The notes beneath the pieces were generated by a model that was not told the origin of the DNA, made no database searches, and saw nothing but the letters and a program-made list of their open reading frames with translations. 64,000 nt of DNA from Eledone cirrhosa (Eukaryota): NCBI GenBank assembly GCA_964016885.1, contig OZ024744.1, positions 31,620,001 through 31,684,000 of the forward strand, read 5' to 3'. The translations under genes were made by a program, and so were the position numbers. This document shows, piece after piece, positions 15,886-60,815 of this stretch (within the stretch, counting starts at the first letter, position 1; every line of letters starts with the position of its first letter).

Positions 15886-16458
15886 GTGAAACCTGGGCCT
15901 CCCATGTGTGACATCACGCCATCTTGGGAATTGTTTGAAGGTTTAAGGTCAAGGGTATACGGGAGATGGTAGAGCATGCCTAGTACGTAATGGAGTTGGA
16001 GTGAAACCTGGGCCTCCCATGTGTGACATCACGCCATCTTGGGAATTGTTTGAAGGTTTAAGGTCAAGGGTATACGGGAGATGGTAGAACATGCCTAGTA
16101 CGTAATGGAGTTGGAGTGAAACCTGGGCCTCCCCATGTGTGACATCACGCCATCTTGGGAATTGTTTGAAGGTTTAAGGTCAAGGGTATACGGGAGATGG
16201 TAGAACATGCCTAGTACGTAATGGAGTTGGAGTGAAACCTGGGCCTCCCCATGTGTGACATCACGCCATCTTGGGAATTGTTTGAAGGTTTAAGGTCAAG
16301 GGTATACGAGAGATGGTAGAGCAAGCCTAGTACGTAATAGAGTTGGAGTGGAACCTGACCCTCCCCTTGTGTGACATCACGCCATCTTGGGAATTGTTTG
16401 AAGGTTTAAGGTCAAGGGTATACGAGAGATGGTAGAGCAAGCCTAGTACGTAATGGAG
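15886..16458. repeat. 115-116-bp tandem repeat, 5 copies
   Basis: Unit GTGAAACCTGGGCCTCCCATGTGTGACATCACGCCATCTTGGG...GTACGTAATGGAGTTGGA starts at ~15886, 16001, 16116, 16232 and 16348. Confidence 0.95.
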
Positions 16459-16734: not shown

Positions 16735-16960
16735 ACAATAACAATACTGGTTTATGATCTAGGCCAACGATTTGAAGGGGATGGGGAAAATCGATTAATT
16801 CGATTCCAGTGTATTACTGGTACTTTATTTTATCGACTCTGTAAAGATGCAAGGCAAAGCTCACCTCGGCAGGATTTGAACTCAGACTGTAAAGGGCCAT
16901 AACTCTATGCTGCAGTGCATGGTGTCTGACGCTCTACCGATGCTGCCAATCCACCGACCT
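16735..16960 (-). mobile_element. tRNA-derived SINE (same family as the array SINEs), diverged
   Basis: Reverse complement reads GGTGGATTGGCAGCATCGGTAGAG...GAGTTCAAATCC...GTCGATAAAATAAAGTACCAG. Confidence 0.75.
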
Positions 16961-17160
16961 TGTGAATTTGATAATAATATTAAGAACAATATCGATGATG
17001 GTCATAATGATAAATGTTTTCTAATTTAGGCACAAGACCATTTGGCGCTGAACTTTACTTGTAATGTCCACCTTCTGTGTTCTTGTAATAATAAAGAAGA
17101 AATTATTATTAAGTTACCGCTGAATGATAAAGGTAATGTATGTACTTGTAACACCTGATG

Positions 17161-20442: not shown

Positions 20443-22162
20443 ATGGCTGAGCCACACCCCCCAGCAATATGTCTGCTGATGTGACAACGGCGTAAAAGTT
20501 GAGAGGAGGGTTAGTGAAATTCATACAACAGACACCACCACAAACAACGTGAACAAAGACAACACTGACAACACTAATTTTGAAAAAATTACCACACCAA
20601 TAATTACAACAATAACAGCGAAAACCAAAATACAGACAACGGAAAAAATGAGAATAAATGCAACAACGATATTAACACCACTAACAAGAAAATAAACGAC
20701 GACACCAACAGCAACAATACAAATTGCACCGAAAGCAACAACAACGGTGGCACCAAAAACACAACCAACTACAACAGTGATAACAGCAACAACACCAACA
20801 ACATCGTTTGTTACAGTAGCATCAGCAATAGCACCAACAACAAGACCGGTAGCGGCAGCAATAATGGTGCCGCTGAAAAAGGTGAGGCCCGAAATATAGA
20901 GAGAGTGCTAGTCACGGAGGAGGAGATGGCAGCCACAAGAACCATGGTGTCGAGAAACGACAATAGAGGTTCCCTTAAACCTCCACCCGATTTTTTCAAA
21001 GAACAGCAACTGCGCACGGTGACATACCGCACCGTAAGCAAAATATCTCATCGGGTGGAGAGAGCCTCGGGGTGCGTCTGGGCGCGCAAAACCCACATTA
21101 TCCGAGGTAAAAAGTACGCGACCCCCCCCCCCCCCCCCCCCAGAGGCGAAGTCTCACTCTTTGGAAACCCTAAAGAGTGAGGAGATAGTCTTGGTACCCT
21201 CCTACTGCGGGCAAAAAATTGTGAGGGTCACAGTGACCCAGGTCCCGCCCGACGTGCCCATACCTTGGCTGGCCGTGTCTGTACTGGCTGGAATCGAGGA
21301 GAAGACCACCATACTGCAAATACAGAGAATGGAAAGAGAGAACTGGTCAGGAATAGGCCAACAAATGCTAATACAGACTGACCAGGAGTGCATCGTGGCC
21401 ATCCCAGACATCATATACCTCGAAGAAGGGCTCCAACTCCCTATAAACGTGGAAGGAACAAAGTGCTATCTCTGTGGGCAGAAGGGTCACCTCAGGGCAT
21501 TCTGTCCGCAGAAGGCTGCCAAGAAGAGCCCCCCCCCCGCCCGCCCTCCATCCGACGCCTGTTCCGCTGCTACCAAGAGCAGGGCAGGCAACAGAGGCAG
21601 AAGACACTTCCATGGTGAGTAGGAGGGCACAAAAAGCAAGAAAGGAAAAACCCCTTAGCTTCACCCTTCAAAAGCGAAGGCCAACGAAGAGGGGTAAAAG
21701 CTGCAAGGATACTTGCAGCAACACCACCACCATCACCATCACCAACACAAGCATCGCCACCAACAACAACCACACCACCACCAGCATCACCAAAAACACC
21801 AACAACGCAAACACAACAAAACACACACACCCAACAGCAACAAAATCCCCCCTCCTCCCAAATAGTACACAGCCATAAACATGGCAAATAAAAAACTCTT
21901 ACAACATATAAAGCAGCACACAGACATCACAGAAAAAAACTACTACACTCCACCAACACCAAGAACTCTCCCGACAAACATAAACATGATTGAAATCAAA
22001 ATAGAACATTGCAAATTATTAAAACAAAAATTCACCAACGCAGTTGGAGACTTCAGAGGGTCGGTTACCAAGAGGATATACACCGACATCCTCTTGGAAA
22101 CACCCATGATCAGCCAAATGGACGGTTCTACTGTCCCTTCACCACACGATCAAGGTAAGTGA
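20443..22162 (+). pseudogene. Copy A ORF1 (gag-like, CCHC knuckle), disrupted
   Basis: Fragments RTVTYRTVS...RKTHIIRGKKYAT, CYLCGQKGHLRAFC, NAVGDFRG...TVPSPHDQGK*. Confidence 0.8.
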
Positions 22163-22194
22163 TCCTTTCTCACTTACCCCGTTTCTCATCCAAC

Positions 22195-24887: not shown

Positions 24888-25163
24888 TTTGAGAAATGAA
24901 AGATTGAGAGAGGTCATTGGCCCTGGTGGTCAGGGTGGCCGTGGTCTTTTGTGTGGTTTTCGCCACGAGTAACCCTCGGAGGTTTCCACCCTATTGGGGA
25001 ATTTTTCATTGTTTCAATTTTCATTTTTATTGTTTATATATATATGTCTTTTTTTTCTTTTCGTATATAAATAATAAACATATTTACACACACAAAACCC
25101 ACATCGTACCGTCCAGTGCCGTCTGATATGTTTTTCTTGATGTCAGCCCTTGTGGCCAATAAA

Positions 25164-25279
25164 GGTTAACTTTACCTTTTATCCTTACGGGGTCGATAAA
25201 ATAAAGTACCAGTAATGTACTGGGTTATTGCTGGCCTTGTGCCTAAAGTAGAAACAATTATTATTATTATTATTATTAT
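25164..25279 (+). mobile_element. 5'-truncated SINE with (ATT)n tail
   Basis: GGTTAACTTTACCTTTTATCCTTACGGGGTCGATAAAATAAAGTACCAG...GGCCTTGTGCCTAAAGTAGAAACA(ATT)n. Confidence 0.85.
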
Positions 25280-25505: not shown

Positions 25506-27488
25506 ATGGAAATTTTCGACCTTGAAACGGTAAACAACGTTCAGGTCAAAAGTTTAAAGGCAGCCACTGCAGATTTCACCACGACTACGACGGCTACACT
25601 CATGCCTGTCATCCACTCTACTGAATGTGAAGGCAAAACTAAAAAGCTACCATCACAATCTTCTGGCATAGCAGCAGTATCATCTGAAAACGACATCACC
25701 ACCACCGCCGCCACCACCACCACAACAACAACAACTCAGAGCAATAACGACAAAAACACCGACAGCTTCAATGTAAACAAGGATGGCGGTGGCAACAGCA
25801 AGAATGACAACAACAACAATAAGAGCATCAGAAACACCACATTTGCTGCAGCAGCAGCAGCAAAAACAAAGCGCTTATTGAATATCGATATTGATATTAG
25901 CGATAAAGACGAACAGTTGGCCAAAGCGTGGAGGCTAATTAAACGGGAGAAGTCCTGGGCAAACCTGACCATCCCGGACGAGGCAATAGCGGCCATGCAA
26001 AGGAGGACGGTGCTCTTTCGATGTATTTCGGTGCAGACACGAAAAGTGGAACTTGCGAGCCAAGCAGAGGTAGAGGCTGCGTTGGAGTACATCGGAAGTA
26101 ACATAGAGTACAAAGCAAGAGGCAAACAGTTCGGTACCATCTCGGTACTGTTCAAATCCGAGGCCCTCGCTATTAAGCACTCGGTGATCCCCTGCAGAAC
26201 GGAACGCATTATCATGCATCCGTCCTATATGGGTAAAAGGACAGTGAAGGTACGCATTCCCAGCATCCCACCAGGAATGAACATATGGTGGCTGCTGGGA
26301 TGCGTAATCGAGGAGGGGACAGACACCACCCTCCTGGACATCAAAAGGACAGAGTGAGAAGACTGGTCCGGAATGGATTTGGAGATTCTTCTCCAAATGA
26401 AACCGGAGGATATAAATAACACCCCAAATTTTGCCCGCCTGCAGGACGGGACAACAATCCAACTAATAATTGACGGAAGAAGGCCACGTTGCTTCGTTTG
26501 CGGGGAAGCCACGCATCTTCAAGCCTTCTGCCCTCAGCGTAAAAATGCAGGGGTCGCAAACCTCCTTTGTTGCCAACGCCAGTGTCAGCACGGAAAGCTG
26601 CACCACCACCACCACCACCAAAAACAACATCAACAAAAACACGGACACCAACATCAAAAGCAGCCGGATCACCACCAACACCAAAACCAATCCAAGGAGA
26701 AAACGAGGAAAGCTCTCCCACTCCCCCCTACCCCCCCCCAACTATATACATAGACAAAAAAAAAAAATAAACGCACACACAGACACAGAGACACTCACAG
26801 ACACAGACCCTTTGTCTTCCAGCAGCGAAGATGAAGGAAAACCCAAAAGTGCAAAAAAACAGAGAAAACTCACACAAAAAAAAAGCCCCTACAAAACACA
26901 AAAACACACACAACAAAAAATACAGACACCACTAACGCAGACACTTCCCCAATAACATCAGCACCATCAGCAACATCGACACCACCTCCACAATCCCCGA
27001 AACGCAAACAACCTAAACAAACACAAGTACAAATAAACACACAAATACCTGAAATTGCAGACACCACACCTACAACAAACATAGACATACCCGAAACAAC
27101 ACCACCAAAACCATCGCCACCACCTTCACCAAAACGAAAACAAATAAAACCACACCAACAAAATGTTAAAAACTTCGTGCTTGTCAGAAGGGCCAACGAT
27201 AAACTGATGGCCCTCTTAGCGCGAAGCGAGGACATTCAAACAGAGGGGGAGATTTTTGAAATGAGCACATTTTGCGTGCCAGAAGATTTGCTTCTGGTCC
27301 GAATGTCACTCAATTCTTTCAAAGAAATTCGAGAGAGCTTTCCTCAAGACGTGGGAAACCCGAATGTGAAACCCACATCAAGACTTTTAAAGGGGTTCCC
27401 AAAAGAAACCCCACCAACCATGGAGGTCGAACCACCCGACCTTCACAAGACCCAGGAGGTAAGTAAACCTTCCCTCTCTCTCTCTTAG
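25506..27488 (+). pseudogene. Copy B ORF1 (divergent gag-like, CCHC knuckle)
   Basis: 283-aa N-terminal ORF, in-frame TGA at 26355, then CFVCGEATHLQAFC and a Pro/Thr-rich tail with frameshifts. Confidence 0.8.
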
Positions 27489-30901: not shown

Positions 30902-31179
30902 GCTAGCTAACTTGAGGAGAGGGGTGCTCTCCTGGGTGCCCTAGAAGCGCAGGGTGGTTCAGGATTGGTGGGGTACCCGAATCACCCCAGGGTCGTCCAC
31001 CTCCTATCGGGGAATTTATTTTGTTATATTTTGCATAGTTTATTTTATATTTTATATTTTCATTGTTAAATTAGTCTTGCCATTGTGCACTTTTACTCGA
31101 CCTTATTGTAAACCCCCACTGTCCCTGTCTTTGTATTGTCCCCTACATGTCGGCCCTTGTGGCTAATAAATGAAATAAT

Positions 31180-31350
31180 TGTTTCTACTTTTGGCACAAG
31201 GCCAGCAATTACCCAGTGCATTACTGGTACTTTATTTTATCGACCCCGTAAGGATGAAAGGCAAAGTCAACCTCGGCGGGATTTGAACTCAGATCGTAAA
31301 GGGACGTAACTATGCTGGAAAGCATGGCGTCCGACCCTCTACCGATACTG
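31180..31350 (-). mobile_element. SINE inserted antisense into the tail of copy B, with a 10-bp TSD
   Basis: ATGAAATAAT at 31170-31179 and 31351-31360 flanks the reverse-complement SINE. Confidence 0.85.
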
Positions 31351-31411: not shown

Positions 31412-31720
31412 AGTTGCATTTATCTTGCTTTATGTTCATACGAGTTATCACCAAGTCACAACCAGTGACTTCAAGAGACAACAAGGTTCGCCATGTTCAA
31501 GAAAGAACATACATACTCACACATGCATCCTTAGTGTTTAGACTTGTGATGTACTTATATTGACAGGATCTTCCTTAGTATATGGGCAGTTCCCATTAGT
31601 ACTATCTTTTGTATTTCTCCTATACGCGGGTTTCCTGGGATTTGCGATAAGTAATCATTAGACCCCTTAGGTATCATTCCCAGAGCGCCTACAACCACTG
31701 GTATTGTTTTAGTTTATTAT

Positions 31721-31902
31721 CGGTGGATTGGCAGTATCGGTAGAGGGTCGGACGCCATGCTTTCCAGCATAGTTACGTCCCTTTACGATCTGAGTTCAAA
31801 TCCCGCCGAGGTTGACTTTGCCTGTCATCCTTACGGGGTCGATAAAATAAAGTACCAGTAATGTACTGGTTAATTGCTGGCCTTGTGCCTAAAGTAGAAA
31901 CA

Positions 31903-31953: not shown

Positions 31954-32169
31954 GAATGCTATGGTTGACGGAGGCTCGGCTCTGTAAGGTATTGTAAATT
32001 TTGAACGCTATAACAATTGTAAATTGTTTAAAACTTTAACGAACTTGTAGACAAAAACACCCTCCTCCTCGTGAGAGGGGTCTTTCTGCCCGTTATTTGG
32101 CCCTTCGGGGTTAAATAACTGCTTATTGGGGTTTTGTGCCCAATATTTATTTAAAAAAAAAATAACAAC

Positions 32170-34267
32170 ATGGCTACGAAAAAGAATTTTCATAGGTCAC
32201 TCCCACTCATTCCGTCTTCTTCTTCCTCAATCATCACTACAGCAGAGAAGATTGTCTCTCTCCCTCCCTTCTTTAAATGTGTCTCTCTCCCTCCCTTCTC
32301 TTTCGCAAGCGACGAAAGAAAAGAAAAGTCTCGTGCAAAGTGTGCAAGATTTCTCCACGACGACGACGACAACGACGAAACAGGTATGCGGGAAATACGA
32401 AAACCCATTTCATTCGTCTGACGTCAGGAATAATAGCAGTAGCAGCCGTAATAACAACAGCAACAGTGACAATGAAAACAACAGTAGCAGCCGCAACAGC
32501 ATCACCAGCAGCATAAACAACAACAGCATTAGCAGCAGCAACATCAACAACAACCACAGCAACAGCGGCGGAGGCAGTAGTCGTAGTACCTGCAGCAACA
32601 ACAAAAGTAACAGCAGCTCTGACGACAACAACAACAGCAGCAAAGAAAAAACAATCTCATTTGCAGGTATTGCGAAGAACCTGGAAACAATCCTCATAAC
32701 AAATGAGGAATTAGAGGAAGCGAAGAAGATGGTGATAAAGACCGGACACCGAGCAATCTGCAAGGCAGCGGAAACATTTTTCGAAACCCAACAGCACTGT
32801 ACGGTCACGTACCGTACAGTAAGTACAAAATCCCGTAGGGTTGAAAGAGCCACAGAGGCTCAAATACAAAAAGCCTTGGGGGTCTGTGTGGCAGCGGAAA
32901 ACGCACATCACCCGAGGCAAAAAATATGCCACCGTAGACGTACTTTTTGCCACACCCCAGGAGGCAAAGGCTCAATCCGTAGGGACCCTAAGGAGCGAGG
33001 AAATAGTGTTGGTGCCCTCCTACTGCGAGCAAAAAATTGTGAGGGTCAAACTGACCCACGTTCCCCCCGGGATGACCCCTCTTGGCTGGCCGCGTCTGTC
33101 CTCGTCGGAATCGAGGACAAAACAACTGTACTGCAAGTACAGAAAAAAGTAAGAGAAGATTGGGTCGGCACCTCCATTGAGATGCTAATCCAAACCAACC
33201 AGGAGTGCATCGAAGCTATCCCGGATGTGATAGACTTCGATAACGGCACTCAACTGCCCATAAGTGTTGAGGGCAAACGCCCGAAATGCTTTCGCTGTGG
33301 ATTGAAGACTCACCTCAGGGCCTTCTGCAACGAGAAGACCCTGAGAAAGGAGAAAACCCCCATCCTTCCGAAACCGGCTCCACCGCTACCAGCAACAGGA
33401 CAAGCGGCAACCAGGAACGATAGGTCCGTCGCACCCATACCCACGCCACGGAAATCAAAAACAGCAATAGCAGTGGAAATATTAACAACAACAACAGCAA
33501 TACCAAATGCAGCTACAACAGAGACTCCAGTGCAAACATCACCAACAACAACAAGTGAAAGAGTGGAGCTGGTACCCCTCCCCGACCTCACAGAATCAGA
33601 CATGGAGTGTGCGGTGGGAGAGGGATGGCAAAAGGTCGTAAGAAGGCACAAACGCAGAAGCAGCGCATCGTCGCCTTTGAAAAGGGAGGAAAGAAATGAG
33701 AAAAGGGTAAAGTCTACTGCAAAGAGACTCACAGCAGCAACACCACCAACACCATCACCACCCACACTAGCACCACCATCACCACCGGCGACAACCCCAC
33801 CGCCAACAACACCTTCAACACCACCACCACAAGCACCAACATCGCAAACACAACAACAAAACACACACACCCAGCAACAACGACAAGAAAATAGCAGAAC
33901 CACACCCCACCCCCAGAAAAACAAATGCACGGCAATAAATACACACAACAAGAAACTAATGACTTACATAATTGAACACACAGACATTTCACAACAGGAC
34001 TACATAATACCAGCACCAATCAAAACGCCAACTAACATAAGACTGCTAAAAATAGCACAGAAACAATACACAAATATTAAAACGAAATTCCCCAACGCAG
34101 TTGGTGATTTCAGGGACCTAGGAGGAACCATCAATCGAAGAGTATACTCAGACATTCTCTTAGAAGAGCCGACGACCAGCCGAAGGGACGATTCAACGGT
34201 CCCTTCACCAGACGATCAAGTGAAAAGGGATGTAAAAACCATCCCTCCTCTACCAAAAGTACGGTAA
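32170..34267 (+). CDS. Copy C ORF1, nucleic-acid-binding protein (RRM-like region and CCHC knuckle); apparent small indels
   Basis: CFRCGLKTHLRAFC (CX2CX4HX4C). The homologous segment RKTHITRGKKYATVDVLF...VPSYC is in another frame between ~32880 and ~33068; the likely ATG at 32170 is also out of frame with the 713-aa ORF. Confidence 0.7.
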
Positions 34268-34302
34268 GTGGTCTTTCCCATCTTTTCCACTCTATTTTAA
34301 AC

Positions 34303-37300
34303 ATGACCTCACTCAGAATAGGCAGCATAAATGCGCGTGGCTTGGGGTCGTCATGGAAGCAGGGTCACCTGCTCAACGACCTCAGGTCACTAAACATAGA
34401 TGTAGTGGCCATCAGCGAGACCAGAATCTCCGAAGCACGGGCCTTCGCACCGATCTTCGGCGGCTTCGATGTGTACGCATCTCCCAGCCGTCCTGGATCC
34501 GGTGGAGGAGTTGCTGTGCTTTTTCGGAGAGGTTTGGATCTCGCCATACGGGCCATCTTCCTGGACCCAGAGGGTAAGCTGGTGGTGCTGGACGTGACCA
34601 GCGGAGACGGGCAAGCTTTCAGGCTAGTGGCCGTCTATGCCCCGACAGGAGCAGGGCGGCCTGATTTCTTCCGGCGTCTGGAGACCTTTCTTGGAACGTC
34701 CCGCTCTTTAGTGTTAGTGGGCGACTGGAACGGGATCTTAGATGCACGCTGGGACTGTGTGGGATTAGCGGATAGGGGTGGAGGGTGCAAGAGCCTCACC
34801 AACCTGCTCAGGCGTTTTGAACTGTCTGACAGGTACCGATTGGATTTCCCGAATGTGCCAATGTGGACTTGGACAAACCGCATAGGGTCATCCAGATCAT
34901 ATCTAGATAGAGTATTTTGTAGGGAAATAGATAGGTCTAGCATAGGCTGTCCACAATTCAAGATAGTCAGCTACACGGACCACAAATTCGTGATCTGTGT
35001 GCTTGACTTAGATAGGCTTCATAGACGAGGACCCGGCTACTGGAAGCTAAACGCGTCCTTTCCAGCGCGCAAGGCCTACAGAGACCGGATTAGCGAACTA
35101 GTTAAGCGGGCATTGACGGGGGCCATCGTCAACAACAAGTGGTGGTTTGCTCTGAAAAGAGCGATTAGAATAGAATCGATTAGGTTTAGTAAGGCTTTAG
35201 CAATAGAGAAAAATAGAGCAGAGGGAGAACTAGTTAGAAAATTAGACGAGGCGCTTAGCAAAGGCATTGCGACCGACGTGCTTGCGGCGAAATTGGCCCT
35301 TGACCAATTCTTCAATGCAAAGCACGAAGGCTGCGTTGTCAGAGCAAGGGTGCGTGCTCTCAGACACGAGGGGACGAAAGCCGTGCAATGGGCCCGAGTG
35401 GCGGAGGCGCGTCGTGGCAACAAAGCCACGATCCGGTCTTTGGTGGACCACGACGGGCGCATGCTACTCGATCCCGGGCAAATGTGTGAAGCTTTTCAGC
35501 GACACTTCGCTCAGCTGTTCGGGGGCAGCGGTGGGCCGGGTAGAGGGATGGACTTTAGTGTCTACCTCGACGGACTGCCGCGGCTCTCGGCCACTGAGGC
35601 GAAGTGTTGCGAAAAGCCGATAACAGCCGCTGAAGTAAGGGAGGCAATGACTGGCTGCACAAGGGGTAAATCGCCTGGTTTGGATGGTCTGCCCTATGAA
35701 CTTTACGTACAGATGCCAGACTTGTTCGGAGGCCTCTTGGCGGACGTCTACTGCAACTGGCAACAGAACGGGAGAATTCCCAGTTCTGTGAGCCGAGGAG
35801 CGGTGGCACTGCTGAGAAAGGATCCGAACAAGGGGGATAACATAGAAAATTTCCGGCCCATAACTCTGCTAAACACAGAGTTTAAGATTTTGGCCAAGGT
35901 GCTAGCAAAGAGGTTGGCGCTTGTCGTTGGTGGTCTGGTGGGAGAGGCGCAGACATGCGCCATTCCCGACAGATCCATCCACGACAACCTCCACCTCATG
36001 CGATACATCGTAGAGAGGGTAGCTAGGGAACCTGGCACGGGTGGGTCCTTGATCAATTTAGATCAGTCGAAAGCTTTCGATAGGGTCGACCATCGTTACC
36101 TAGCGGCAGTCCTGAGGGCGGCTGGCTTTGGGCCCGTCTTCAGAGGCTGGATCGCTGCCATGCACAGCGACATCTGCTCTGTGGTGAGAGTGAACGGTCA
36201 CCTGTCTGAACCGTTCAACATCATGCGCTCGGTCCGCCAAGGATGTCCCCTCTCGTCCCTCTTGTACGTATTGACGCTCGAGCCATTACTGCACAAACTG
36301 GAGACGTTGAGGGGAGTCCCGCGCGAACTAGGATGCGGAAGATCCGTGTCAGCATATGCGGACGATGTCACCGTAGTGGTGTCGAACGCCAAACACATCG
36401 AGGCGATCGGCACTACACTAAGAGAATACGAAGCGGTGACAGGAGCAATGATCAACCAGGAAAAGTCAGTGGGCCTGCAGCTCGGCACCTGGAGAGGCAG
36501 GTCCATGCCGTCCAACAGCGTCGTCGGGCGCTGGACGGACGGACCGGTTAAATTGCTAGGGGTCTGGTTCGGTCCGGACCTCCAGACGGACAAAAACTGG
36601 GACGAGGTGACGAGCAGGGTGGCTTCTCTCACCCAGAAATGGGCGGAGAGGAAGCTATCCCTGAAAGGTCGAGCGGAGGTGGCTAACGCGTACATCGCGT
36701 CTGTCATCTGCTACCGCCTAACCGTCGTACCTTGTCCTAAGCCTCGCCTGACTGCGCTGGAGCGTTTGCTCTTTCGCTTTTTGTGGAAGGGACGTGCTCC
36801 GATGGTCAGGCGGTCCATCTGTTGTCAACACCCGCTACGTGGAGGGCTGGGCATGCCGTGGCTGATGATGCGCAGGCACGCGCTCAGGCTACGACATCTC
36901 CACCTCTTCCTCGACGGTGATCAGGTGTGGTCGCCGTTTGCTAGACGCGTTTTTCCCCAGCTCGTTTCCTTGACGGAGCTGCAGTCCTGGGTCAAGCGAA
37001 GACCGAGAGGGAGCGCCTGGAGACTGGAATGTCTTCAGGCGCTCACAGCCCTCGACCAATCGGGCAATGTGATCGGTGGAAACTCCACCTCGGCGTTCTA
37101 TAGAGGATTAGTGGAGGGGAAGAGCGACGACGTACTTGGGGAAACTCTAGGCGTCGACGAAAATCAACTAGCCAATCTCTTCGGAAGAACTTTCGGGCCG
37201 GGGCCTATGGACAACTTCCAGAAATCTCTGGCCTGGCAGTGCTACCGAGGAGCCTTGCCAGTTCGGGATAAACTCTACAGGCATGGAGGTGCCGTCAGCC

Positions 37301-37722
37301 GGGCATGTCCGAGATGCGCGCAGGGCGACGAAACCGTCCTGCACGCACTCGTCCAGTGTCCGAAAATTGCTGACTTGTGGGTTTATGTCGAACACCTGCT
37401 GTCGCGTTTAGGACGGATCCGGCTATCATCTGAGTCCATCGTGAGGATTGCCCCGCCCTCCTCCTTTAGCCGGGAAGGGCAGGCAGTTTTTATCTGCCTG
37501 GTGGCCATGGTGAAAGAGATAGTATGGTGGACACGTTTGAAAGGGCTGAAGACGAGCACTTACCTCTTCGGTGATGCTCTGATTGACTTTTTCAAATTTC
37601 ATTTGAAAAGGAAAATCAGAGTAGAGAGGGAAGTGCTCTCTTCCCAGCATTTTGTTGAAAGATGGGTGAGAGAAGCAAGAATGGCCCGAGTGAATGGGCC
37701 TACTCTGAGTATATATCTGTAA
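34303..37722 (+). CDS. Copy C ORF2: intact 1139-aa APE endonuclease, reverse transcriptase and C-terminal zinc finger (Tx1/L1 clade)
   Basis: INARGL, ISET, VYAP, GDWN, YLDR, TDH (APE); KSPGLDG, RPITLLN, DQSKAFD, RQGCPLS, YADD, LLGV (RT); CPRC...H...C. Confidence 0.95.
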   Translation: MTSLRIGSINARGLGSSWKQGHLLNDLRSLNIDVVAISETRISEARAFAPIFGGFDVYASPSRPGSGGGVAVLFRRGLDLAIRAIFLDPEGKLVVLDVTSGDGQAFRLVAVYAPTGAGRPDFFRRLETFLGTSRSLVLVGDWNGILDARWDCVGLADRGGGCKSLTNLLRRFELSDRYRLDFPNVPMWTWTNRIGSSRSYLDRVFCREIDRSSIGCPQFKIVSYTDHKFVICVLDLDRLHRRGPGYWKLNASFPARKAYRDRISELVKRALTGAIVNNKWWFALKRAIRIESIRFSKALAIEKNRAEGELVRKLDEALSKGIATDVLAAKLALDQFFNAKHEGCVVRARVRALRHEGTKAVQWARVAEARRGNKATIRSLVDHDGRMLLDPGQMCEAFQRHFAQLFGGSGGPGRGMDFSVYLDGLPRLSATEAKCCEKPITAAEVREAMTGCTRGKSPGLDGLPYELYVQMPDLFGGLLADVYCNWQQNGRIPSSVSRGAVALLRKDPNKGDNIENFRPITLLNTEFKILAKVLAKRLALVVGGLVGEAQTCAIPDRSIHDNLHLMRYIVERVAREPGTGGSLINLDQSKAFDRVDHRYLAAVLRAAGFGPVFRGWIAAMHSDICSVVRVNGHLSEPFNIMRSVRQGCPLSSLLYVLTLEPLLHKLETLRGVPRELGCGRSVSAYADDVTVVVSNAKHIEAIGTTLREYEAVTGAMINQEKSVGLQLGTWRGRSMPSNSVVGRWTDGPVKLLGVWFGPDLQTDKNWDEVTSRVASLTQKWAERKLSLKGRAEVANAYIASVICYRLTVVPCPKPRLTALERLLFRFLWKGRAPMVRRSICCQHPLRGGLGMPWLMMRRHALRLRHLHLFLDGDQVWSPFARRVFPQLVSLTELQSWVKRRPRGSAWRLECLQALTALDQSGNVIGGNSTSAFYRGLVEGKSDDVLGETLGVDENQLANLFGRTFGPGPMDNFQKSLAWQCYRGALPVRDKLYRHGGAVSRACPRCAQGDETVLHALVQCPKIADLWVYVEHLLSRLGRIRLSSESIVRIAPPSSFSREGQAVFICLVAMVKEIVWWTRLKGLKTSTYLFGDALIDFFKFHLKRKIRVEREVLSSQHFVERWVREARMARVNGPTLSIYL

Positions 37723-37982
37723 ATTAAAGGTGGAAAACTGGGAGAGGGCACTTGCCTTGGTGGTCAGGGTCATTGTGGCTTTTTACTGGGCTTTCACCAC
37801 AAATGTCCCTCCGAAGTCTCCCCCCTATTGGGGAATTTTTCATTGTTATTTTCATTGTTATTTTTGTTACATCCTCTGTTTTTGTTTTTTTTACACGCAG
37901 AAATGCCCATTTGTACCGTCCTGCATTGTCCTGCACTGTCCTTAATGTCTACTTTATGTAAACCCTTGTGGTTAATAAAGAA

Positions 37983-38236: not shown

Positions 38237-40224
38237 ATGGCTAATTCCCCTCTGCACGAAGCAGCTGAAAGCCTTCCTCACAAAATAACACCTCACACCG
38301 ACACCACCATTGTAAATGTTACTACGTTTGCCAACACGAAAAAAAATATAAGCAGTAGCAATATTTTAAATTTGTCTCAGGCAGACATTCATTTCCCGCC
38401 ATTACCAATGACTGCAGGTGTTAAACCCTCCTCCACCACCACCACCGCGACAACCACCACCACCACCACCACCACCGCGACACCAGAAACAAAAGAAGAA
38501 AAAAATAAATTAACTCGTGACGTCGAAATGAAATCAAGCAAAATGGACTCTTCCCCACCAAAGACGACTGACGTCACCACCACCACAACTGAAAATAAAA
38601 TTAATATTAACGATAGCAACAACAACAACAATGACATTATAAAACCGACCCTCAGTTTCGCCATCGTAGCAAAACAATTCGAAGCGTTCACGGTAACTCA
38701 AGAAGATTTAGAAAATGCCAAACAAATGGTAAAGAAAGATGGGTACAGGGTCAGCCTCACCCCCCACCTAATAAAATGGAGCATCGGCGCCTGTGCACCG
38801 TGTCGTATAGAACAATAAATGTAAAATCGCGCCGAGTGGAACGGGCATCCGAGTCCCAAATCCAAAAAGCTTTGGGACATGTGTGGGCAAGAAAAACCCA
38901 CATCAGACGTGGGCAAAAGTATGGAACCGTGGATGTGTTCTTTGAAACACCAGATGAGGCTAGAGAACACTCCATGGCCCCATTAAAAAGTGACGACCTC
39001 ACACTCGTCCCAAGCTATTGTGGCCAGAGACTCGTAAAGATCAGGGTGACCCACGTTCCACCGGCCATCGAAATTCCCTGGCTAATAGCGGCTGTCCTCG
39101 CCGGCATCGAAGCCAACACGAAAATAATAGCAGTAGCAAAAGAAAAGCAGGAAAACTGGTCGGGATCTGGGATGGAGCTCCTGATCCAAGCGGACCAAAA
39201 AAGCATTGAGGATATCCCAGAGGTAATAGACCTCACTGACGGCAGCCACCTCACGGTAATTGTCGAGGGCAGAAGACCTAGGTGTGTCGTTTGTGGTGAA
39301 GGAACCCACCTAAGGGCTTTCTGCCCTCAGGCTAAAAGGTTGAGGCCACCTCTCCTACCCACCCCAGTGACACAACCATCAACACCACCAGTAGCAGAGA
39401 TGGCAGCAACAACTGTAGCAGCAACAACAGAAGCAACTATAACAGCAACAACCCCAGCAACAGTAGCAAAACCAACACCACTACCACCACCAGCAAAACC
39501 AACACCACCACCACCCAACGCTTCAGAACTAGTACCAGCGCCTACACCATCCACCGCACCACAACCAAAACTAACGGCTGTGGAGGATTTTCCACTCCCC
39601 GGCCTATCACAACTGGAGACAGATTGTGACGACGAGGAGTGGGAAACGATATCCGGGAAAAAAAAAAGAAACCAAAAAAGAAAAAATTCTCTTCCTTCCC
39701 CCTCCAAAAACAAAATACAGAGGGAAACAAATAAACTAAGAAACAAAAAAGTTAGGACAGATATGCCACCATCCACACCAGCATCACCAACCCCATCAAC
39801 CCAAACACCAACACCATCACCATCATTATCCCCAGCACCACCATCACCTACACCACAAAAGTCACCAAAATGCGAAACAGAAACAAACCCACAACAAACG
39901 CAAACAAAACAAGACAACCAAAACGATACACACTACACAGCATTAAATTTGAACAACAAGCAATTATTACACTACATCCAACACAACACCAGCATCACAG
40001 AAAAAGACTACACAACAACCCCAAAATTCACACCACCTCCACACATACAAATCACTCGCATCACACAGAAAACGTACATGACACTAAAACAAAAATTCCC
40101 CAAAGACATCGGAGACTTCCGACAAGCACTCTCCAGGAGGATTTATAAGGACATCCTTCCTGAGGAGGCCACAGGCAGTGAAAAGGTTGGAAAAGCCGTC
40201 CTTCCCCTACGAGAAGTAAGGTAA
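38237..40224 (+). CDS. Copy D ORF1 (one frameshift near 38765)
   Basis: 38237-38818 and 38776-40224 overlap; CVVCGEGTHLRAFC knuckle. Confidence 0.75.
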
Positions 40225-40258
40225 GTGGTCTTTCCCATCTTTTCCACTCCTTTTCAAC

Positions 40259-43677: not shown

Positions 43678-43921
43678 ATTAAAGGTGGAAAACTGGGAGA
43701 GGGGACTTGCCCTGGTGGTCAGGGCCACTGTGGTCTTTTAATGGGCTTTCTCCACAAATGTCCCTTGGAAGTCTCCCCCGTATTGGGGAATTTTTCTTTG
43801 TTATTTTATTTCAACCTCTGTTTTTTTTTACACGCAGAAATGCCCATTTGTACCGTCCTGTATTGTCCTGTACTGTCCTTAATGTCTACTTTATGTGAAC
43901 CCTTGTGGTTAATAAAGAAAA

Positions 43922-46600: not shown

Positions 46601-46609
46601 TCATTATTA

Positions 46610-46803
46610 TTGGATTGGCAGTATCGGTAGAGGGTCGGACGCCATGCTTTCCAGCATAGTTACGTCCCTTTACGATCTGAGTTCAAATCCCGCCGAGGTT
46701 GACTTTGCCTTTCATCCTTACGGGGTCGATAAAATAAAGTACCAGTAATGCACTGAGTAATTGCTGGCCTTGTGCCTAAAGTAGAAACAATTATTATTAT
46801 TAT
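46610..46803 (+). mobile_element. SINE, same family as 31721
   Basis: Near-identical to 31724-31905; begins after ATTATTAT. Confidence 0.9.
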
Positions 46804-46828
46804 TGTTGTTATTGTTGTTGTTGTTGTT

Positions 46829-47080
46829 AGGGCGGTGGATTGACCGTATCAGTTGAGCGTCAGACATGATACTTTGCAGCCTAGAGTTATGGCCCTTTAC
46901 AGTCTAAATTCAAATAATGCCGTGGTGAGCGTTGCCTTTTATATTTACGGTGTCGATAAAATAAAGCACCAGTCCTGCACTGGGGTCGATTTAATCGACT
47001 TTCCTCTCACCCAAAATACACTGACCTATAGTAGAAACCATTCTGGCCTTGGGCCAAAAGTAGAAACAATTATTATTGTT
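46829..47080 (+). mobile_element. SINE, older/longer subfamily
   Basis: GGCGGTGGATTGACCGTATC...GTCGATAAAATAAAGCACCAG...GGCCTTGGGCCAAAAGTAGAAACAATTATT. Confidence 0.75.
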
Positions 47081-47085
47081 ATAAC

Positions 47086-47283
47086 AAGGGCGGTGGATTG
47101 ACAGTATCGGTAGAGGGTTGGACGCCATGCTTTGACGCATAGTTTCGGCCCTTTATGATCTGAGTTCAAATCTCACGAAGGTTAACTTTGCCTTTCATCC
47201 TTACGGGGTTGCTAAAATAAAGTACCAGTAATGTACTGGGATAATTGCCGGCCTTGTGCCAAAAGTAGAAACAATTATTATAA
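47086..47283 (+). mobile_element. SINE, same family
   Basis: GGGCGGTGGATTGACAGTATCGG...GAGTTCAAATC...GGCCTTGTGCCAAAAGTAGAAACAATTATT. Confidence 0.85.
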
Positions 47284-48571: not shown

Positions 48572-48667
48572 TTACAAAATGGTCGTTACTGTGGCGTTGT
48601 TAATCTGCGTGAGTCGACAGAACCATCGTTAGAGCCTTCCACAGAATGACTTGCAATATTTCTTCTC

Positions 48668-48855
48668 CGTGGATTGGCAGTATCGGTAGAGGGTCGGATG
48701 CCATGCTTTCTAGCATAGAGTTACGGCCCTTGCCATTCTGAGTTCAAATCCCACCGGGGTTAACTTTGCCTTTCAGTATTACGGGGGTCGATAAAATAAA
48801 GTACCAGTAATGCACTGGGTAATTGCTTGCCTTGTGCCAAATCTAGAAACAATAT
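48668..48855 (+). mobile_element. SINE, same family
   Basis: GTGGATTGGCAGTATCGG...GAGTTCAAATCC...CCTTGTGCCAAATCTAGAAACAATATT. Confidence 0.85.
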
Positions 48856-48910
48856 TTCTTCTCGGTCCTGAGTTCAAATCGTACACACACACACATACAC
48901 ACACACACAC

Positions 48911-58442: not shown

Positions 58443-60815
58443 TAATAATAATAACAATAATAGTAATGAAATGTTGTGTACAGTGCCCTGGTGCACCACA
58501 ACTCATCAAAAAGTGCATGTACAGTACATAGGGCAATGCACAAACATGAGTAAAATGAACAGTGCGCAAGTCATGATACACACGTGTGCATGTGTATGGA
58601 AGGGGTACATCAGGTGTAGTTTTGGCATATTTCGGGAAGCATGAGTGTCTTAAAGGATGCAGTGTCTCGGCAGCTAACAACTGACGCAGGCAGTTTATTC
58701 CATGCTTCAGAAACTCTGAGCGTGAAAAAATGTCTACGAAAGTCATGGGAGCTGTGCTGTTTTCTGATTTTGTAGGCATGTCCACGTGTGTTAGACACAT
58801 GGAGATCAAAAAGGTGCTCAGGGTTGCAATTGGCGAGATGGTTAATAACTTTGTGGGTATTCACCAAGTCCATTGCCAGACGTCGGAGCTTCAATGAATC
58901 CATGCCCAGGGAAGCAAGGCGTTCAGAGTATGGTAGGTGTCTGATGGAGGGTATGCGCTTGCTTGCACGTCTCTGAACAGTTTCCAGGAGGTCAATGTTC
59001 TGAGCAAGGTAGGGGTTCCAGACTGATGATGCAAATTCCAAGTGTGGTCGTACCATAGCTGTATACAGTTTTAAATAGATGTCTGGAGAGCGGCTAACAA
59101 AGGTCTTGCTGAGTGATGCCAAGACACCCTCGGCCTTCTTGACAATCTTAGAGACATGTATTGTCCAACGCAAATCGCTGCTGACAGTAATTCCCAGGTC
59201 ATGTTCACAAGAGGACTTCTTGATATCAGTGTTGTGGAGGGAGTATGTGGACGCTGGATTTTTCCTTCCAAAATGCATGGTGGTACACTTGTCCACAGCC
59301 AGCTTCAGTTGCCAGTCTGTGATCTATTGCTGCATTGTGTCCAGGTCTGATTGTAGGAAAGAATTGTAAATTTCAGGATCAGTCCTTTTGATTTCAAGGT
59401 ACAGCTTGATGTCATCTGCATATTTCAGTACCGTGGCATTCTTAAAGTTGGCATTTATGTCATTAATATATGCCACAAACAAAAGGGGACCAAGAACAGA
59501 TCCCTGTGGTACACCAGATGACATCTCATATGGTGAAGAATGGTGCCCTAGAACCGTGACTACTTCTTTTCGGTTGAGAATGAAGGATTTCAAACAGTCG
59601 AAAAGATCATCCCTCACACCCATTGCAGAGAGTTTTGCCATAAGTCTTTTGTGTGGCACAGAATTAAAAGCCTTAGCAAAGTCAAGGTAAACAACATCCA
59701 CCCATGAGCCGCTGTCAGTGATCCGGGTGATGTCTTCAAGGAACTCGATAAGCTGATCACAGCAGCTGGAGTTAGGGATAAATTCAAACTGTGAGGGCCG
59801 GATGAGGCTGTGAAAGCTCCAGAAGTTCCAAAGTGTTTCTCTGACACAGGATTCCATCAGTTTGGCCATACAGCTAGTAAGACTGACTGGACGATAGTTG
59901 ACAGGTGACATGCAGTTATCCTTTTTGAACAGGGGAATGACACTGGCAGTTTTCCACTGCTCCGGAGTAGCACCATTGTTGAGACAGTATTGAAAGAAGA
60001 AAGAAAGCTGGCGCAAAAGGAAATACCCGCCACGTTTGAGAAGCAGGTATGTCACACCATCAAGACCAGGGGAGGCATAGTTGCGCTTATTCTTAAGGTG
60101 ACGTCGCAACATTGCAGGTGTAAATTCCATAGTTGTTATGGAATTAGATGTTAGAGATGGTGGAGATGGTACATTCTGGTTTTCAACAGTAAAAATACTT
60201 GCATAGCACTCAGCAATGAGTTCTGCGCATTCTTTGGGATCGTCAGTGATCTGGCTTGTGTTGGGATTGCGAAGAGGACCAACTGGAGAGTGAGGTCTCT
60301 GCTTTGAATGGACATATTTCCAGAACACTTTACTGTCAGGATTGGTTGCTATGCACTGTTCAAATTCAAGCACTGCCTTCTTTGTCACTTGCTTGGGATG
60401 GTTAGAAGATTTATTCCGCTTTTTTCTGTTGGCATCTGATTTATGCAGTTTATATTCCCGTTCAGCGTTCCGACGTTCTTTCCTGGCAAGTCGGACCGCT
60501 GAAGTTTCCCAAATTGCACTTTTGGGGTGGTTATTTTTCCGCTTACGTGGCACCGATGCTGCACACGCTATCCATATTGAGTCCAGGATGCTCTGGAGTA
60601 TAGTGTTCACATCTCCAGAGTTATAGAACTCATGCCAGTTTGGGCGCTATAGCTCAGTGCAGTACAAGTTCCAATCCGCCCTCTTCCAATCAAAGCAAGC
60701 AGATTGGAGATGGCTCTGGTTTTTGTTGCTGCCCTCAAGTGCCAGATTGGCAATGATCATAGCATGATCGGAGTCGCCTAGAGGTTCCTCAGTAGTACAA
60801 CTGATTATAAACAAG
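58443..60815 (-). pseudogene. 5'-truncated CR1-clade LINE; ORF2 RT with one in-frame stop at 59324-59326
   Basis: SDH end of APE, SPGLDG, NYRPVSLTS, YLDFAKAF, GVPQGSVLGPLLF, YADD, RPHLEFASSVWNP, TRGH, AWNKLP; (ATT)n-like tail. Confidence 0.9.

Follow-up and report, generated by a model that had tools for sequence, protein, structure and literature searches.

A chimeric LINE family in Eledone cirrhosa, probably joined by splicing between two parent families

The LINE family C of Eledone cirrhosa is probably a splice-born chimera of two other families, P and D, and was likely made once. Its parentage, the direction of change, a breakpoint placed within 2 nt and a ladder of subfamilies leading away from it can all be read from comparisons among genomic copies. 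Splicing, read-through, mobilisation in cis and selection on an inserted G are what we infer from that record. A P...D tandem array would have been read through into one transcript, probably, with trans-splicing as the alternative, and the spliceosome would have joined the donor at the end of P's ORF1 to a cryptic CAG in D. In the product, the P 5' UTR and ORF1 would be followed on the D side by the final 43 nt of ORF1, the spacer, ORF2 and the 3' UTR. A complete ORF1 would thereby end just ahead of the D ORF2 start, allowing ORF2p to be made and retrotransposition to proceed in cis. A one-base insertion of G, at birth or soon after, would have restored D's frame and stop, and the family would then have expanded via its ladder of subfamilies.

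Structure of the array and of element C

The window analysed here, a stretch of 64,000 nt from a genome of 3.0 Gb, contains LINEs arranged head to tail (A, B, C, D and a fifth, truncated copy) at approximately 20300-46600, with (ATT)n and SINEs lying between A, B, C and D. Element C (31954-37982, plus strand, as are all the LINE features below) is a full-length L1-clade, Tx1-like LINE bounded by (ATT)n runs and is a member of the chimeric family. Its P-derived module, consisting of the 5' UTR and ORF1 (ATG at 32170), runs from 31954 to 34220 and ends in GATCAAG. The AG at 34219-34220 is common to P (AAG/GTAAGT) and D (CAG/TGAAAAGG) and marks either a splice junction or a 2-nt microhomology. 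It is succeeded by a D-derived ORF1 tail of 43 nt (34221-34263), encoding ...VKRDVKTIPPLPKVR, in which one extra G in the run at 34227-34229 gives D's reading frame, and then by a donor-like motif, ACG/GTAAGT (34261-34269), that contains the ORF1 stop TAA (34265-34267). The D-derived ORF2 (34303-37722) is intact and encodes 1139 aa with APE endonuclease, RT and zf-RVT domains (Pfam Exo_endo_phos, RVT_1 and zf-RVT, all above cut-offs).

The window copy of C carries frameshifts within the 5' half of ORF1; an intact C-family ORF1 of 698 aa is present in copy L091. A CX2CX4HX4C motif (CCHC knuckle) is visible in this intact protein, no Pfam match to ORF1 passed the cut-off, and its look-alikes in the atlas are CCHC and ZCCHC3-RBD clusters (0.90-0.93), to be taken as a lead only. 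Among scored copies, (ATT)n follows the 3' end in 69/72 and precedes the 5' start in 67/68; the 3' run is perhaps partly the element's own tail. By ORF2 architecture and fixed-target insertion, C-type elements fit the Tx1 group of the L1 clade, whose target-specific members are described as having an APE-RT-zinc finger ORF2, an RRM-like/CCHC ORF1 and a fixed repeat target (PMC5203782, PMC3747384). The ORF2 layout and insertion at a fixed target are shared, and the CCHC motif of ORF1 may be a further likeness; the clade is assigned provisionally, from architecture. However, (ATT)n-targeted tandem arrays and a conserved donor and hairpin at the ORF1 end set C-type elements apart from the Tx1 elements of those accounts. 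No named Tx1 reference was among the homologues found (closer relatives 39-79% at the amino-acid level).

The window holds several further repeats. A unit of ~115 nt occurs in about five tandem copies of 94-98% identity at 15886-16458, and one SINE family recurs within (ATT)n runs amid the LINEs (16785-17040, 25163-25256, 31174-31350, 31714-31902, 46604-47275 and 48659-48858); one of the window's SINEs presumably resembles octopus SINEs. Long stop-free frames of 440 and 237 aa lie on the minus strand at 59324-60646 and 58610-59323, respectively. In sequencing run X6, of unrecorded library type, depth over 33950-37980 rises ~100-fold toward the 3' end, as expected of poly(A) RNA, and no such rise is seen in run X1. 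One contig from run X6 spans the C junction; given the unrecorded library type, this run carries no weight in what follows.

Parentage, direction of change and breakpoint

The motifs on which the sequence-only reading was built are all present in A, C and D at the positions it quoted. C reads CCCTTCACCAGACGATCAAG to 34220 and continues with TGAAAAGG; A reads CCCTTCACCACACGATCAAG to 22154 and continues with GTAAGT; D has CAG at 40176-40178 and continues with TGAAAAGG. A BLAST alignment of C to D begins at 34219/40177 and extends for 3,616 nt at 96% identity. The chimera and its donor-site geometry stood, but the source of ORF1, which had been taken to be A, is instead a sister family of A. This family, P, was represented by 58 exact genome matches to the C-type ORF1 pattern followed by GTAAG and is absent from the window. 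The ORF1 of P is ~90% identical to that of the window C, compared with ~70% for A. In its spacer P resembles A, while ORF2 identity is ~86% to A and ~82% to C and D.

In the ORF1 tree, P and C were grouped (100/100) apart from D (100/100). The ORF2 tree, built without three rearranged long-branch rows, instead paired C with D and A with P and rejected any grouping of P and C (p-AU 6.8e-5). The comparison of ORF1 and ORF2 trees that had been suggested beforehand was therefore discordant. An ORF1 tree of 100 rows shows P as a star, from which the C copies branch off in a ladder. Moreover, an older D subfamily already possesses the tail, with CAT replacing CAG. Because the two trees are incongruent, C ladders out of P and the tail is present in older D, these comparisons identify C as a recombinant that took its 5' UTR and ORF1 from P and the rest from D. 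The direction of change proposed at the outset was likewise borne out by the nesting of C, whose ORF1 falls within P and whose ORF2 falls within D.

The opposite polarity, in which C is ancestral or merely homologous and A and P lost the 43-nt tail by deletion, is hardly credible. It could draw on the young window copies, which differ at about 9/43 tail positions. However, the D tail is (by eye) the positional homologue of the last codons of P and A, and C holds both; older D has the tail with CAT; and C nests within both parents, so that ancestry of C is refuted by the incongruent trees. Decay is similar, at ~3%, in P, old D and old C (medians 3.2% in P and 3.1% in old C), and the three were therefore active together.

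The junction features are found family-wide, in 30/30 C, 27/27 D and 25/26 A copies (best-match loci with the anchor, 83/90, a sample picked by likeness and hence biased), so the GT of A-type and the AG of D-type elements are not peculiarities of the window copies. CAG precedes the junction point in 61/65 D copies. The sequence-only reading had cautioned that C and D match poorly in the ~45 nt past the junction. This difficulty disappears with older copies: three early C copies are identical to an old D copy at 42/44 nt after the junction, as against 36/44 for the window C. Over the last 100 nt before the AG, early C copies share 96-98 with a P copy and only 68-72 with the window A. Column majorities of old C and old D differ at 11 of 3,610 columns, of which the extra G is the sole fixed difference. 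Since early C and old D agree from the CAG onwards, the extra G aside, the break is placed at the AG at 34219-34220, to within 2 nt as judged from these alignments. The two sides meet about one tail length out of register, so that the ORF1 tail is duplicated, and the joint is therefore not a homologous crossover.

The junction pattern shared by C and D has 4,506 genome matches, and the younger C type accounts for 39 of the first 100 listed; extrapolation from these matches gives a family of ~2,000 C copies. All 40 scored matches to the C junction region show 100% identity across 341 nt, and the family is still young. The extra G is found in nearly all C copies, with 213 matches to the old tail bearing it and 7 G-less copies among 9 pattern matches; three of these 7 bear the oldest tail. 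The C frame without the G ends ...QVKRMEKPSFLYEK followed by a stop (by eye, copy L319), whereas with the G the frame and stop of D are restored. Only 4 D copies have this G. Within the C tail (34221-34263), 6/43 sites changed between old copies (L264-L293 and L302-L313) and young C, giving five amino-acid changes, against 3.4% in the rest of ORF1 (binomial p 0.003). These changes removed three AG dinucleotides and weakened the donor from AAG/GT to ACG/GT.

The joint, its donor and its acceptor

The P side of the joint ends exactly at AAG/GTAAGT, which matches the U1 consensus in full, and the D side starts past CAG. Each of the lineages encountered (P, A, A2, B, C, D, F and G) has a donor-like 9-mer where ORF1 stops, and two reading phases are represented. 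The 9-mer reads AAG/GTAAGT in P, A and D, AAG or GAG/GTAAGT in B (GAG/GTAAGT in the window copy, 27456-27464), ACG/GTAAGT in C, AGG/GTAGGT in A2, CAG/GTAATT in F and AAG/GTAGCT in a single copy of G. In distant LINEs from metagenomes, GGTRAG was found in 1/22. The ORF1 end of the window D (40140-40226) holds a weak acceptor, CAG at 40176-40178, then the homologous tail and its own donor AAG/GTAAGT (GT at 40221-40222). The donor of the window A (22152-22178) occupies the same position as that of P, and in both families it forms the 5' arm of a 9-bp hairpin that begins at the donor G (z -1.95; mean pairing 0.75 in P).

In A and P (window 22154-22178; P copies L201-L259) the donor pairs with a downstream anti-donor, CACTTACC in A, which presumably resembles the 5' end of U1. 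Different and weaker hairpins lie over the same spot in other families. The ORF1-end hairpin may mask the donor from U1, and it may itself be a conserved feature, acting as a translation signal. It may also attract template jumps, which would be a reason other than splicing for a break at the donor.

How often such a joint would arise by chance was calculated from all possible P-D joins in four window sizes, each weighted according to the microhomology lengths seen in 120 deletions. The probability is 0.4-2.9% for a break at the donor, 0.16-1.3% for the donor together with AG, and 0.03-0.11% for the donor together with YAG. A splice-mediated origin with exon/GT...AG/exon geometry, as put forward in the earlier proposal, is therefore favoured statistically and is the probable one. 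The two other cautions attached to that proposal stand: the AG is also a 2-nt microhomology, and the pyrimidine tract of the D acceptor is very weak (3/14 pyrimidines). Between the P donor and the D CAG of a naturally occurring P-D tandem there are 182 YAGs, of which just 15 are as weak as that CAG, and a better CCAG lies 42 nt upstream of it. Only a presumed viability filter, requiring an ORF1 stop near the ORF2 ATG, would explain the choice of the weak CAG.

The main competitor, which we regard as appreciably less probable than splicing but well worth weighing, is joining at a microhomology without splicing. ORF2p on D RNA would have jumped to P RNA at the AG 5' of the P hairpin, or a P-D tandem in DNA or cDNA would have suffered a deletion at the AG; the coincidence with the donor would be chance, aided by the hairpin and by the need for a whole ORF1. 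Short microhomologies dominate the rearrangements of these elements, being commonplace at 2 nt or more (68/120 deletions), and the junctions are scattered. The acceptor is weak and the hairpin starts at the donor G. In addition, the ~3% decay of P, old D and old C implies the coeval activity that strand switching requires (PMC3600994). Against this, chance alone would give the donor and a YAG together with a probability no higher than about 0.1%, and even a tenfold preference for the hairpin would bring it only to ~1%; an in-register crossover within the ~82%-identical ORF2 would moreover have been an easier route. By our own estimate, with the weak tract discounted, splicing is preferred to simple joining at a microhomology by a likelihood ratio of a few hundred. 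Conversely, splice-born chimeras have a low prior share, bounded at a few per cent by the survey of deletions, and C is a single event that was selected because it looked splice-like.

The survey of other junctions gave no support to splicing as a recurring route of shuffling. Deletions compatible with GT-AG numbered 2/120, with 1.45 expected, and thus showed no excess. A check suggested beforehand was whether other chimeric subfamilies also break exactly at GT/AG; among 38 out-of-register junctions listed, a set that overlaps the deletions, C's alone does so, and the others are scattered. Genome-wide exclusion patterns (16, 4 and 9 matches; sensitivity about 32-56% per random junction) contained no other donor-to-AG join, and no GT..AG joint was found among the 15 of 293 matches listed from four contig sets.

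One D copy (L168) breaks at the donor and joins GG. This copy bears on a third account, spliceosome-assisted but incomplete, in which first-step cleavage at the P donor would free a 5' exon ending in AAG-3'OH and RT or an RNA ligase would join it to D RNA or cDNA via the AG. Such a route would account for an exact donor beside a poor acceptor, and L168, with its break at the donor and a non-AG partner, has the expected form; L1 exons ending at donors without an acceptor have also been reported (PMC13174262). However, it does not require the pyrimidine before the AG, L168 is a lone case within chance on a rough estimate, and free 5' exons are hypothetical. We consider this account very unlikely.

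One-off mosaics between families were also seen, from C to P within ORF1 and from P, A or F to D within ORF2 (L248, L213, L196, L077, L238 and L240). Judged from the copies compared, inter-family recombination is common in these arrays.

Splicing of a read-through transcript, the preferred account, needs P and D in tandem. P is directly followed by D at 8/59 P loci, five of which have an old-type D with CAG; substrates for the read-through step of the earlier proposal therefore existed. A tempting birthplace, by contrast, failed on its SNPs. Locus L212 (G000:C2:46715429-46725428) contains P and, directly behind it, a D with the extra G, but its P half has 4/43 C-diagnostic alleles, lacks alleles that are near-fixed in C and still segregating among P copies, and has no more than 2/37 private alleles in common with any C copy. 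The P-D pair at L212 is preceded by C and D copies, and the extra G in its D is a coincidence or gene conversion. Two further loci, L248 and L213, were rejected as representatives of the parent subfamily: their 5' part has mid-C alleles and their last ~300 nt P alleles, and they are later mosaics. No D lies directly behind L248, and the further flank L323 gave no family match. The birthplace was not found among the 59 P loci, perhaps 40% of a family estimated at ~150 copies.

Two other splice readings were rejected. A mini-intron of ~53 nt fusing ORF1 to ORF2 would be in frame in C and D, but not in P, and no intronless D copy occurred among 4 matches. An ORF1-only RNA could be spliced to a strong acceptor-like sequence (T-rich tract plus CAG) in the 3' UTR of C and D (37875-37900 in C), for which no usage was detected; no such D retrocopy was found, P lacks that strong acceptor, and the corresponding joint was absent among the 15 of 293 contig matches listed. 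This acceptor-like site (about 43815-43840 in D) lies ~75 nt ahead of the poly(A) signal, and a splice into it from ORF1 would add ~20 in-frame codons.

Related retrotransposons and significance

The closest parallels come from primate SVA elements. In human SVA_F1 (MAST2 exon 1) and chimpanzee pt_SVA_D6 (STK40 exon 1), a 5' module was spliced to an internal acceptor and the products were amplified to 84 and 94 copies, respectively (PMC6139936). As in C, a new retrotransposon subfamily arose from a spliced 5' module. However, SVA is non-autonomous and its module is a host exon or promoter in that account, whereas the module of C is a LINE promoter with a whole ORF1, in an autonomous family of ~2,000 copies. 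The formation of C would work like that of SVA_F1 in that its 5' part ends exactly at a consensus donor of its source; the 3' part begins after CAG with a tract of 3/14, and the likeness is put forward as an analogy.

Splicing is also known to reshape L1. In mRNA/L1 chimeras such as RAP1GDS1-L1PA2, cis- or trans-splicing gives a retrotransposition-competent L1 a new 5' end, and the authors speculate that 5' swaps drive L1 evolution (PMC13174262). Unlike C, the chimeras set out in that paper carry host exons, at 1-4 copies each, with no ORF1 exchange or new family. SpIREs, which are spliced L1 RNAs that have been retrotransposed, are intra-element products that lose parts of the promoter or ORF1 and are generally dead ends, whereas C is inter-family and successful (PMC5860796). 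The mouse L1MdTf and Gf families combine the 5' UTR and ORF1 of one lineage with the ORF2 of another; DNA recombination, RNA/DNA heteroduplexes and RT strand switching have been proposed for them, and splicing is unmentioned in the main text (PMC3600994). The C join differs from those families in that it falls at a consensus donor and is out of register. The literature covered, which took in few subscription papers, yielded no report of an autonomous family founded by splicing of one LINE to another.

A wider reading can be put forward tentatively, and we think it rather unlikely. GTAAGT, retained at the ORF1 stop throughout this LINE clade, would be a working 5' splice site, usually masked by the hairpin; targeting of microsatellites would stack families head to tail; ORF1 would serve as an exon shuffled onto a neighbour's ORF2; and splicing would be a built-in route to new autonomous LINE families. 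Swapping of LINE promoters and ORF1 is usually ascribed to strand switching or recombination (PMC3600994). Were the join of C a template switch, it would still be an unusually clean and dated ORF1 exchange. Both parents, early chimeras and a young descendant family coexist in one genome, and the birth of C, an autonomous family, is therefore legible at a resolution of two nucleotides.
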